Of a stretch of DNA of 57,877 nt, positions 1,883 through 57,877 are shown one piece after another. Position numbers and translations under genes: made by a program. Source of the DNA: Ginglymostoma cirratum (lineage: Eukaryota); assembly GCA_024137785.1 (NCBI GenBank), contig JAHRHZ010000028.1, positions 22,195,969-22,253,845 of the forward strand, written 5' to 3'. The notes beneath the pieces were generated by a model that was not told the origin of the DNA, did no database searches, and saw only the letters and a program-made list of their open reading frames with translations. How positions within the stretch are numbered: position 1 is the stretch's first letter; each line of letters begins with the position of its first letter.

Positions 1883-1964
1883 GGTTTAGGCCCGAAACGT
1901 CAAGTTTTCCTGCTCCTATGATGCTGCTTGACCTGCTGTGTTCATCCAGCCCCATGCTTGTTAT
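1883..1964 (+). mobile_element. Penelope-type pLTR fragment, family A, with TSD
   Basis: ggtttaggcccgaaacgtc...tgctgcttgacctgctgtgttcatccagc, flanked by the direct repeat gtctgaaattg (1872-1882 and 1965-1975). Confidence 0.75.
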
Positions 1965-2699
1965 GTCTGAAATTGAAACTTTTTTTCCAATTTCGTAACA
2001 GATTATCTGTCAGTGAATGAGGCATTTAGATTTTCTTTTCAACTTTCAGAAGAAGGCAATTTTGTTCCTAAGAAAAAGCTGGTTGAATATTTATATTCAA
2101 GCATCAAACATAGAATAGGAAAGTGTATCAACATGCTTTCCCTCATTTTGAATGCATTGTAGCATTTTCTCCAATGGCAAAAGTACAATGCCTGGTAAGG
2201 TAAAGGACAATTTATCTTTGCAGGATAGAGACTTTGATGAATCACTGCATTAAAGGCACATGTACATTACAACGCAGTAACTAACAGTGACATTTAAAAG
2301 TGTCAAAACATTTCACACTTGGTTATCAGAATGTTTTAGACACCTCAGCAGGCTTTCATCAGGGGCCACAAACTTTCTAATGAAGTATGCAATTTAAGGG
2401 CTTGCAAAACCCACACCAGCATACGAAAATTGTGGTGCATGAGGAAATATAATTTTCCTGTGGCCCTCACAAAGGGGACTCTGATCTCAGAAGAGCTGAG
2501 AGTATGTTTTACATCCAATGCCTTTCTAACCATAAAAGTACCATAAAAATGCCTGATTAGGAAGACAGAGAAAAGTGCATTAATATCTTCAGAGCAAATT
2601 TTGACCCCCATGAGATGAAGGAAAACTGGCCCACTGTTTCCACTTGAGAGAAAATTCAAAACGAGGAACCAGAAATATAAAGCAAGATATGAATATAAA

Positions 2700-2910
2700 T
2701 CTAATTGGGAAGACAGAAGAAAGATCTTCACTCAGAGTATATCGAATGTGGATCTCAGACCAAAGGGAAGTAGCTTGGATGCTAAACCTTGAGAAAGGGA
2801 AATAGAACAGACTCTGAAAGACTGAAATGAGGCATTGGAGGTGCCTCACATGGTGAATACATAGCATGGGCTAATTGGACTGAATGGCCTTTTTCTACAG
2901 TATAATCCTA
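2700..2910 (+). mobile_element. CR1 LINE 3' end fragment (old)
   Basis: tcttcactcagag...atgtgga and the tail ggactgaatggcct resemble other CR1 3' ends in the window. Confidence 0.5.
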
Positions 2911-4112
2911 TTCCACGCATTTAACGTCTATTTTAGGTTTAAGGTTTCCTATCTTTGCACTTGTGTGGTAGGACAGATATCCCTCTCAACTGGACAGCAC
3001 TCAGCTCCTTTCTAATGACCAACTTGCCAAACATTTGTTGTGCCTTGCAAAGACTTCTTTTTACAAAAATGTTAGAACACTGATCACTTTTAAGCACACA
3101 AATTCTTACATATGCATGTCTGAACATTTGAACTTTCAGTGTTAGTCTACGGTCAGCCTTTTGCTGAAAGGTAAAATGTGCAAAGTTTTTGCACTACCCA
3201 AACTTAATTGGAGATGCTGATATCGGGTATTGGCACAGTTGAAGTTTAGATCCTCAATTTCATTAAAAAATGAGTTGTGACACAGATAAGTTTCAAAACA
3301 GCTCAAGACATTCCCTCCTTTAAAGGGTAAGGAGGTAAAATTACCCAAAGCATTGGATCCAACTCATGCACAGACACCAAGTCTACCAGCACTGTGTATT
3401 AGTTTACCCAGCTGAAAATTTCATTGAGTGCAAACTAGCAGTTTAATAGCTAAAGTGCCGTATCATTATTATTGCATATGCATTCTGACAGTATTGGGGA
3501 AGTGGTACTTTAAATTTTTGATTCACAAGCCCTTTGCAATCATCTGTCCTCATCTTCCCCAGATCCTTCTTTGCATCCTGTCATGCCCTGGAATTTCATC
3601 ATTGTTCTGAGTTATCTAAAATTTCCTTTTCCCTTGGTCACAACAATACTTACCTTGCTCTTAACCATTTGAAGAGTCACCTCTTCTCTGTTGTAAAGAT
3701 CAGTGCAAAATACAAATATCTGCATTACTTATTGATATTAATCATTTATATTTTGAGAATTGTCCCACCTTAATTATAGCAATCGCTTTTCAATGATAGG
3801 AATTACTTTATTATTGTCATTAATGATTGCTAACATTCTCTCAGTATCTTTTAGCCTTCATCATTGTGCACTCTGATTGATCTTATTTTCTCAAATTTCA
3901 TGATTACTCGTCCAGTTATTCTTCTCTGGTTACTCGTACAAACCCGTTAGCACTTTCGTAAAAAACATCTTCCACATCACGATCTATGACCCGATTGAGA
4001 GAGAACTGAATGACTAACTGCAGCAAGACTCCCGAAACTCCATTCTCAGGGGTTATGTTGCAACAGTTTCACTACAAATGGCCATAAGGTTATGCTTACT
4101 GTAGCAACTTAC

Positions 4113-4239
4113 CAACATAATATGGTGTGTAGCAAGGGGTTGCTAATGAATTGAAGCTGGTGGTTTCTTTGGCAAAGCCAAAATCTGTTAGCTTTAAAAT
4201 AGCATTAGGTCTTTTGGTGGTGTACAACAAATTTTCTGG
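4113..4239 (-). CDS. MAPKAPK2: MAPKAPK2 coding exon (exon 5 equivalent), 127 bp
   Basis: ctgcag|CCA GAA AAT...TAT GTT G|gtaagt = [42 protein letters not shown]. Contains the DFG motif and the activation-loop T-P p38 site. KRPNAILKL is MK2-like rather than MK3-like. Confidence 0.95.
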
Positions 4240-56290: not shown

Positions 56291-56564
56291 ATCATTACAC
56301 TGAACTCAAATAGTGTTAACTGTGCTCTCCTCACAGGTGCTGCCAGACCTGCTAAGTTTCTCCAGTGGGTTTCTTTGCCAGATGTCCAGCAACAACTGTA
56401 TTTTGTTTCTTTACAGTCAAACAGAATATGGATTATATCATCAAGATCTGAACTGGTTATCTCTGCAACAAGAACCAAAATTGCTGGAAAAACTTAGCAG
56501 GTCTGGCAGCATCTGTGGAGAGAAAACAGAGGTAACATTTCATATGCAGTGACCCTTCATCATG
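56291..56564. mobile_element. Two family B Penelope-type fragments in opposite orientation (56291-56373 +, 56467-56564 -)
   Basis: ctcacaggtgctgccagacctgctaagtttctccag and ctggaaaaacttagcaggtctggcagcatctgtggagag...gtgacccttcatca. Confidence 0.75.
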
Positions 56565-57300
56565 AGGATAGTCTCTGTGTTGCAGATAACACTGCAGTCC
56601 TCAACACTAAACATGAGCGTGATGCAAATCTCCCTCAACTCAGGACAATATCTTTTAATCAATGTACCTCGCCAAACGGCATTAGACCCAATCCAACTAA
56701 AATAGAAGACATGCAAAAATGCTCACACAACTAGACAAAGGTGTCTCACTCTATCTAAATTTTTACCCCCATACATTTGAATTACGTGATCAAAGTCTCT
56801 CCTTTTCAAGTTTCTACTCCGCAAAGGTGTGTCAGATACACAGTAAGATCACCAACACGTTACGCTCCGTCATCCAGCAGGTGTGTTCCATGTCAAGACA
56901 TATTAGGCCATTCACATATAGGTTACATGGGCACAGAAAAAAACTGATAGACTCACGTGAGTATCGCCTGGCCCAACATCAATAAAGATTGATTAGTTGA
57001 TCAAGTTGTGTGCAACACGCCAACTCCATCCACCTCAATAATCACAAGAACCTCTCATTCCACACAAAATTCCTTCTGAGTCACGAAGCAAGATTCTAAC
57101 CAATATTTTCCATATTCAAAAAGGTACAATTGTGTTCTGGTAATTGACAACTTCACCTAATTTCCTTTTGCGTAACAAATCAAACAACATTACTACAACA
57201 TTTACTGCATATTCAACAAATGCCCAGAGTTCATTATCTTTACAGTATAAACTGTGCGCTAATGTACTTGTGTACAGTCTTGTACATGGAAGTATAAGTA
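56565..57300 (+). pseudogene. Ty3/Gypsy LTR-retrotransposon pol remnant (RT plus integrase)
   Basis: Decayed frames give CVADNTAV (YxDD equivalent) and GIRPNPTKIEDMQ for RT, then DILGHSHIGYMGTEK...WPNINKD...CATRQLH...QEPLIPHKIP...TNIFH...LVIDNFT (HHCC zinc finger and first DDE aspartate region). The RT-then-IN order is Gypsy-like. Confidence 0.75.
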
Positions 57301-57493
57301 ACAAGTTGGGGGGGGGGGGGGGCGGAGGATATTGCATTATTGCAAGAATCCCGGAAAGACAGTGCACTTCTAAGACATCAGGACTTGTGATATTCTAATA
57401 TAAAAGGTCCTTACCTCACCTTCAGTAATAATATGTACTAAGTCAGTCAGCAATGTGTAGTGATGCAGCTATAACATGAGTAAACAGAACCCA

Positions 57494-57877
57494 TGAGATA
57501 ACAAGGTGTAGAGCTGGATGAACACAGCAGGCTAAGCAGCATCAGAGGAGCAGGAAGGCTGACGTTTCAGGCCTAGACCCTTCTTCAGAAATGGGGGAAG
57601 GGAAGTGGGTTCTGAAATAAATAGGGAGGGAGGGGGAGGCAGGTAGAAGATGGATAGAGGAGAAGATAGGTGGAGAGAAGACTGACAGGTCAAAGAGGCG
57701 GGGATGGAGCCAGTAAAGGTGAGTGTAGGTGGGGAGGTAGGGAGGAGATATCTCAGTCCACGGAGGACAGACAGGTCAAGGGGGATGGATGAGGTTAGTA
57801 GGTAGGAGATTGGGGTGGGGCTTGAGGTGGGAGGTGGGAGGAGGGGGATAGGTGGGAGGAAGGACAGGTTAGGGAGG
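57494..57877 (-). mobile_element. Penelope-like element 3' end/pLTR (family A, long copy), truncated by the window edge
   Basis: Highly similar to 44035-44395. The minus strand includes the hammerhead box CTGAAGAAGGGTCTAGGCCTGAAACGTC. Confidence 0.88.

Follow-up and report, generated by a model that had tools for sequence, protein, structure and literature searches.

The window analyzed here, 57,877 nucleotides of the shark Ginglymostoma cirratum (genome size, 4.36 Gb; contig JAHRHZ010000028.1, positions 22,195,969 to 22,253,845 of the forward strand), lies in the gene for MK2 (MAPKAPK2), which runs on the minus strand, and contains two families of short repeats, A and B, with hammerhead ribozyme motifs. 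Judged from sequence, both families are the hammerhead-bearing terminal repeats (pseudo-long terminal repeats [pLTRs]) of coding Penelope-like elements (PLEs) that have a reverse transcriptase (RT) and a GIY-YIG endonuclease (EN). Their short copies are probably by-products of insertion with a peculiar geometry, described below. Four MK2 exons were located in the window:

41629-41768, minus strand: MK2 exon (MK2, E 5.5e-24, versus MK3, E 1.1e-15)
7133-7197, minus strand: MK2 exon
6373-6452, minus strand: MK2 exon
4113-4239, minus strand: MK2 exon

A motif scan of up to 60 kb past the window, in a stretch that is partly N, did not find MK2 exon 1. Every repeat copy in the window is intronic.

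Repeat arms were called by BLAST of the window with family references and numbered on a model in which position 0 is C3 of the hammerhead. Their 3' ends are bimodal, at about +93 or +127 in A and at about +96 or at +123 or more in B, and we refer to the two kinds as short and tailed. The window holds 20 arms (11 A and 9 B; 11 on the minus strand and 9 on the plus strand) that make up about 15 insertions, together with one diverged fold-back at 47761-47907. The original prediction of two repeat families with about 14 insertions was thus borne out, also in their positions, which are as follows:

1873..1970, plus strand: family A short copy (model -1..+96), core broken
7506..7645, no single strand: family B tailed arm at 7506-7611 (minus; +18..+123) and, behind it, the decayed remains of a hammerhead on the plus strand
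7935..8148, no single strand: family B head-to-head pair, short arm (+11..+97) and tailed arm (-4..+123), the latter with core boxes intact at 8025-8050 (+) and the helix III CpG decayed
11201..11433, no single strand: family A head-to-head pair, tailed arm (0..+127) and short arm (-3..+96), the latter keeping its core boxes intact (11337, +); target-site duplication of 15 bp
17456..17621, no single strand: family B head-to-head pair, arms starting at +35 and +21 (inside or past the hammerhead)
28183..28215, minus strand: family A fragment, tail only (+92..+126)
30677..30750, plus strand: older A-type copy (+5..+78), broken core
33660..33760, plus strand: family B short copy (-5..+95) with core boxes, CG helix III and 4-bp helix I; G10.1-U11.1
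42466..42563, minus strand: family A short copy (-3..+94), broken helix III; 9-bp target-site duplication
44010..44459, minus strand: 5'-truncated family A element; flanking duplication of about 10 bp
47761..47907, no single strand: diverged A-like fold-back, centered on stem II
48024..48093, plus strand: old family B copy (+27..+96)
51256..51382, minus strand: family A short tailed copy (-2..+127), hammerhead from 51380 downwards, in the sense of the MK2 pre-mRNA and fully intact, unlike any other minimal hammerhead in the window
53394..53622, no single strand: family A head-to-head pair, short arm (-4..+94) and tailed arm (-5..+127), both cores broken
56315..56562, no single strand: tail-to-tail arrangement of two old family B arms (plus, then minus) separated by about 100 bp
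57494..57877, minus strand: longer family A copy with 3' untranslated region (UTR) and hammerhead (core boxes intact, G10.1-U11.1), short end at +94; touches the window edge

The truncated element at 44010-44459 connects family A to a coding sequence. It consists, in order, of the last 24 codons of an open reading frame (ORF), a pyrimidine-rich 3' UTR, a broken hammerhead and a pLTR with tail, and it encodes the same C terminus as an uninterrupted, 5'-truncated family A frame of 547 amino acids that ends about 250 nucleotides before an A hammerhead 26 to 28 kb past the window (L070:6289-7929, G000:C28:22280134-22281774, minus strand), probably still inside MK2 intron 1. This frame matches RVT_1 (E 1.5e-6; 28.5 bits, just below the cutoff of 29.6) and GIY-YIG (E 5.6e-5, above the cutoff), with a C-x4-C-x2-C linker at residues 387 to 395 and the EN motifs at 424 to 441. 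A Cys-rich linker between RT and EN is a mark of Neptune and Nematis elements (PMC8557442). The best 30 genomic matches of the A element reach upstream, over varying lengths, into RT and GIY-YIG. Among 30 family B loci, eight arms share an upstream UTR, and broken frames that stop just before this UTR are 45 to 60% identical to the A frame from the RT thumb to the end of the EN (E down to 3e-52). Since tails adjoin RT-EN frames in both families, directly in A and with a related frame in B, the predicted link to Penelope elements is upheld and both repeats are pLTRs of coding elements. Among named proteins, those of carpet sharks are closest to the A frame (93% and 89%), followed by those of rays and marine invertebrates (about 50 to 65%); a PDB sequence search with the RT-EN frame returned nothing relevant. 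The pLTRs are arranged in tandem at one locus (L061) and as nine long inverted units among L062 to L080.

Next to the element at 44010-44459 there is a local duplication of 132 bp, 93% identical, at 43879-44010 and 45140-45283. The element is present in the first duplicate only, and the second, an empty-site paralogue, thus fixes the boundaries of the insertion.

The genome sample started from 100 grid-spaced 10-kb stretches of large contigs, of which 45 were all N and were left out; 60 stretches beside readable ones were added, for a total of 1,128,954 readable bases that is not strictly random. The sample holds 296 arms (154 A and 142 B) from 253 insertions, or one arm per 3.8 kb, which extrapolates to about 1 million insertions genome-wide. 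At that rate 15.2 arms would be expected in the window, against the 20 found (P 0.13). The emphasis originally laid on density within a host gene was therefore misplaced, as the MK2 introns have the genome-average density and are not special in this respect.

A descriptor of the minimal type I hammerhead (CUGANGA, 0 or 1 extra nucleotide, stem II of at least 4 bp, GAAA, 0 to 4 nucleotides and UH) found six sites in the window, compared to a mean of 0.13 and a maximum of 2 in 100 shuffles. The claim that the copies keep the motif was not confirmed, however: core boxes are retained in 6 of the 20 window arms, and core boxes with a CG helix III and the G10.1-C11.1 pair in a single one (51256-51382). 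Neither did the suggested Rfam scan of the window match any hammerhead model, even at E<=10; its best matches were microRNA models below their gathering scores, located on fold-back pairs. The family-majority sequences, for their part, have the core boxes, an extra nucleotide after A9, a G-C-closed stem II and a palindromic helix III, and both the extra nucleotide, which had been pointed out as a tolerated variant, and the CG helix III fit the metazoan PLE consensus (PMC4209133). In the genome sample, the descriptor found 74 sites in 1.129 Mb (44 A, 17 B and 13 unassigned) versus 1 to 5 in five shuffles. The extra nucleotide is present in 72 of them and 34 are strict, which extrapolates to about 290,000 descriptor hits in the genome, about 130,000 of them strict.

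Stem II had been described as staying paired in spite of its variants. The four variants quoted do exist, but staying paired does not amount to covariation; most changes are one-sided, from G-C to G-U at CpG sites. In stem alignments of 74 of the 77 A references (three with core deletions were left out) and all 58 B references, covariation scores did not rise above shuffles in either family, with values as high in 402 of 500 (A) and 64 of 500 (B). The core is better conserved than the flanking repeat. Positions outside CpG match the majority in 754 of 770 cases in A (97.9%) versus 7430 of 8029 in the tail (92.5%), and in 580 of 617 in B (94.0%) versus 5527 of 6434 (85.9%), although the gap in A is small against a tail median of 96.9% and the closeness of core positions to alignment starts may slightly inflate their conservation. 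The most variable positions are N7 (about 50%) and loop II. At CpG positions the core decays, with G12 retained in 97 of 111 A and 53 of 86 B cases and 18 of 69 A rows and 23 of 58 B rows having lost the helix III pair, which indicates that inserted copies are not maintained. The pattern of core conservation would fit selection on source elements or lineages. Monomers fold no more stably than shuffles (z 0.6 to -0.2), and in the minimum-energy fold stem II and helix I form in B copies and not in A copies. One A subfamily combines U at N7 with an additional A just past the cut site, by which helix I would grow from two to three pairs. A third hammerhead family occurs in the sample but not in the window; its core is the same, its 6-bp stem II is unrelated and it also forms head-to-head pairs (L186:6780-7060, L203:8149, L207:2154 and L211:9823).

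The notable part is the geometry of the insertions. We scored the 5' ends of 126 of the 154 A arms and 107 of the 142 B arms in the sample (at least 60 bits, with neither N nor a stretch edge within 10 nucleotides upstream). They pile up at -7..-1, just before the ribozyme (28 A and 39 B; mode, -3/-4), with a density of 4.0 (A) and 5.6 (B) per nucleotide versus 0.15 and 0.11 at -100..-8, where only 14 A and 10 B ends lie; a further 24 A and 10 B arms extend beyond -100. No A end falls at -14..-8. Upstream of this 5' wall there are either unrelated flanks or the inverted partner arm, so that a shared upstream exon or the UTR of another subfamily was rejected as its cause. The ribozyme cut site was likewise rejected as what sets the 5' ends, the peak being absent there: only 4 A and 6 B ends lie within 3 nucleotides of it (p 2e-5 and 5e-7 versus the wall), and the copies include the predicted cut site intact. 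A secondary cluster of A ends is found at +3..+8 (20 of 126), around +5, just past an AG that follows a pyrimidine tract. Near-full-length copies share the wall. Among 20 copies with the start of the element body, examined out of 40 listed, three start at -3, one at -6 and, doubtfully, one at -2; eight run into the upstream UTR as partial tandems, one starts at about +3, four inside the repeat and two are masked. In these shark elements the long frame opens after the tail. Both families have an initiator-like pyrimidine-A context with A at -4.

The 43 head-to-head pairs of the sample follow a rule of their own. One tailed and one short arm were found in 37 of them (20 of 20 in A and 17 of 23 in B), two short arms in six, all B, and two tailed arms in none, while the tailed share among single arms is about 44%. 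Target-site duplications of at least 9 bp flank 14 of the 20 A pairs (10 to 17 bp, ten of them 14 to 15 bp) and, with lengths of 9 to 15 bp, 5 of 15 A singles that end at the wall, compared to 0.3% of control sites.

We consider it probable that the short copies are abortive insertion products, formed when internally primed cDNA runs off the 5' end of an uncut RNA just before the ribozyme. The two 3' ends would correspond to two internal sites at which RT starts, of the kind demonstrated in vitro with the anole element. The endonuclease would nick both target strands about 14 bp apart, both nicks could prime, and one nick per RT start site would produce a head-to-head pair of one tailed and one short arm. 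The cDNA would extend over 100 to 130 nucleotides to the wall, which would represent the RNA 5' end and probably the transcription start, and once inserted the copies would decay neutrally. As the cut site lies within the copies, the template was either uncut or re-joined. For the anole Poseidon enzyme, it has been described that both target strands are cut and extended, that two adjacent internal RT starts bound the tail and that uncut RNA is the dominant template (PMC11167929), and Penelope transcription begins inside its own pLTR (PMC2377424); this and the initiator-like context at -4 speak for the wall as the RNA 5' end. Head-to-head inversions have been ascribed to self-priming on an antisense template (Arkhipova 2013, PMC3846280); the one-tailed-arm rule and the 14-bp duplications fit priming from both nicks better, we infer. 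Several observations weigh against run-off from an RNA 5' end and the by-product origin that goes with it. Many 5' ends lie inside the hammerhead (40 of 126 A and 36 of 107 B), and all are BLAST ends that microhomology may shift by a few bases. There is no excess of untemplated G at the wall (12 of 53 versus 25 of 92 at other 5' ends), which leaves a capped 5' end without support. The stop fraction is alike at the first pass (28 stop and 38 pass in A) and at the upstream pLTR (4 to 5 stop and 8 pass), a result equally expected from a structural stop that is leaky. Duplications of at least 9 bp are rare in family B, the older of the two (2 of 27 edge singles and 2 of 23 pairs). Short B copies are nearer the consensus than long ones (84.0 versus 79.6%, partly since long alignments include diverged UTR), and the position-by-position comparison of short and long variants covers family A only.

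In a rival reading with the same PLE origin, the wall would be a leaky stop or a release of the template after helix I has been copied, on RNA that extends further upstream, with either the RT itself or a protein bound to the folded or dimeric hammerhead causing the halt. The similar stop fraction at the 3' and 5' pLTRs, the missing cap-G signal and the broad excess of ends over the whole motif all agree with such a stop, as does the protein-assisted anole ribozyme (PMC11167929). However, the peak sits where copying of the motif is already complete and not ahead of the motif, the fold of the monomer is weak (z as given above) and the step at -7 is abrupt, with the interval beyond it empty in A, and we regard the leaky stop as unlikely. 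Also unlikely is an elaboration of run-off, a strong-stop cycle, in which transcription would begin at -4, RT from +93/+127 would run off and the short cDNA would jump to an RNA 3' end trimmed by ribozyme cleavage in the downstream pLTR, with the 31-nucleotide hammerhead core as the terminal redundancy. A successful jump would copy the body and rebuild pLTRs and partial tandems, and a failed one (about 40% per pass) would leave stubs; a choice between jump and integration at each arrival at a 5' end would give the same constant stop fraction. If true, this cycle would provide a job for the PLE ribozyme and an explanation of pLTR regeneration, and it would leave the shark with some 10^5 intact-looking hammerhead motifs.

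The original prediction saw in the insertions non-autonomous ribozyme-bearing units mobilized by a Penelope enzyme. On such a model, the 100-to-130-bp units would be retrozyme- or SINE-like (short interspersed nuclear element-like) elements with sources of their own, cut out by the hammerhead and mobilized in trans. Short units are indeed more numerous than long ones and have their own target duplications, and Xenopus retrozymes come from pLTRs (bioRxiv 10.64898/2026.07.22.740005). Yet no diagnostic variant splits short from long A copies: in 31 short and 32 long copies, all 19 variable positions occur in similar proportions (Fisher p 0.36 to 1.0) and identity is 89.4 versus 88.2%, i.e., they are of equal age. 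The units do not end at the cut site, and the anole enzyme requires sequence located downstream of the RT start, which a stub lacks (PMC11167929). Tandem units are rare, with 8 same-strand neighbors within 300 bp in the sample against 50 head-to-head ones, and the window has no head-to-tail hammerhead units. The fold-back junctions were distinct in 46 of 47 pairs; fold-backs moving as units were rejected, with one repeated seam type (wall-to-wall) in the 47. Separate retro-units are thus unsupported and, to us, improbable; as the variant comparison in A indicates, the stubs are by-products of the coding elements and not a lineage of their own. Very improbable is co-option by the host, by which intronic hammerheads would act on the MK2 pre-mRNA through cleavage or regulation. 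The pre-mRNA sense does contain one motif that is fully intact (51380) and two whose core boxes are (57588 and 42560). Against this, density and orientation are ordinary, CpG core positions decay, a dimer would have to be formed with an intact sense partner no nearer than 6.2 kb and fold-back pairs bury the motif in a duplex of 60 to 100 bp. Minimal PLE hammerheads are also described without monomer cleavage (PMC4209133), and eight of nine Xenopus dimers did not cut (bioRxiv 10.64898/2026.07.22.740005). Notable cleavage of MK2 pre-mRNA by these copies would therefore be unlikely.

The fold-back pairs at 11201-11433, 17456-17621, 53394-53622 and 7935-8148 are predicted to form duplexes of 60 to 100 bp (-110 to -179 kcal/mol) and are possible sources of double-stranded RNA in the pre-mRNA. 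With 43 pairs in 1.13 Mb, fold-back stubs would put many such duplexes into shark pre-mRNAs.

The window also contains repeats unrelated to A and B. Fragments of another long interspersed nuclear element (LINE) are found at 21019-21486, 32180-32635 and 37956-38372, along with repeats at 18758-27837; the fragment at 21019 matches Exo_endo_phos_2 (E 2.5e-6), RT-like pieces are present too, and ten N at 21652-21661 fall within a LINE fragment. Another dispersed repeat, about 330 bp long and similar to a SINE in appearance, occurs at 14765-14938, 52425-52754 and 53672-54029.

Compared with known systems, the ribozyme is the familiar part. Metazoan PLE hammerheads (PMC4209133) share with those of the shark CUGANGA, the extra nucleotide after A9, G10.1-C11.1, GAAA, a palindromic CG helix III and a short helix I, and they too are mostly single motifs from truncated PLEs, with some opposite-strand pairs 100 to 700 bp apart. 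The shark families are not named in the available text of that paper or in the two supplement files searched, and no fixed 5' wall is described there. Descriptor hits amount to about 290,000 in the shark versus 4,000 in coelacanth and 9,000 in Xenopus (PMC4209133), and 126,247 canonical motifs have been counted in axolotl (PMC7229834), figures obtained with different descriptors. As a list, intronic ribozyme-like motifs carry little weight, since PLE hammerheads are known and the copies are mostly decayed. In a partial literature, without Dfam or Repbase, neither PLE hammerheads of sharks nor a fixed 5' boundary at the ribozyme turned up as the subject of a paper. Families A and B may overlap with the retrozyme/PLE families of one cartilaginous fish listed by the supplements of bioRxiv 10.64898/2026.07.22.740005. 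Non-LTR retrozymes (PMC7229834; bioRxiv 10.64898/2026.07.22.740005) resemble the stubs in being pLTR-derived, short and non-coding, with a type I hammerhead and many monomers. They are defined by head-to-tail units of about 170 to 400 nucleotides and circular RNA, however, while the shark stubs are single or head-to-head and tied to the subfamilies of a coding element.

Among PLEs with an endonuclease, those of the Neptune/Nematis type (PMC8557442, PMC3846280) come close to the shark elements in RT, Cys-rich linker and C-terminal GIY-YIG, and also in 5' truncation, partial tandems, an inverted 5' copy, target duplication and a tail of 30 to 40 bp at one end. Unlike them, most shark insertions are only 100 to 230 bp long and have one common 5' boundary at the ribozyme edge. 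Poseidon PAc of Anolis carolinensis (Frangieh 2024, PMC11167929) parallels our reading of the shark in the two internal RT starts that bound the tail, the cutting and extension of both strands and the uncut template, although it belongs to another clade and its ORF starts inside the hammerhead, whereas the long frame of the shark starts after the tail; a discussion of a 5' run-off product was not found in the available text on PAc. The way in which PLEs build their pLTRs, tails and inverted copies is described as an open question (PMC2377424, PMC8557442), and ribozyme cleavage is not needed in vitro, the role of the hammerhead being unclear (PMC11167929). The presence of a ribozyme in PLEs is already known, and the insertion geometry is a real and testable clue to this open mechanism. 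From the fixed 5' wall, the two 3' ends and the single tail of inverted pairs follow sharp and cheap predictions, namely, an RNA 5' end at -4, cDNAs of 100 and 130 nucleotides and a cut with a 14-bp stagger from which both strands are primed.

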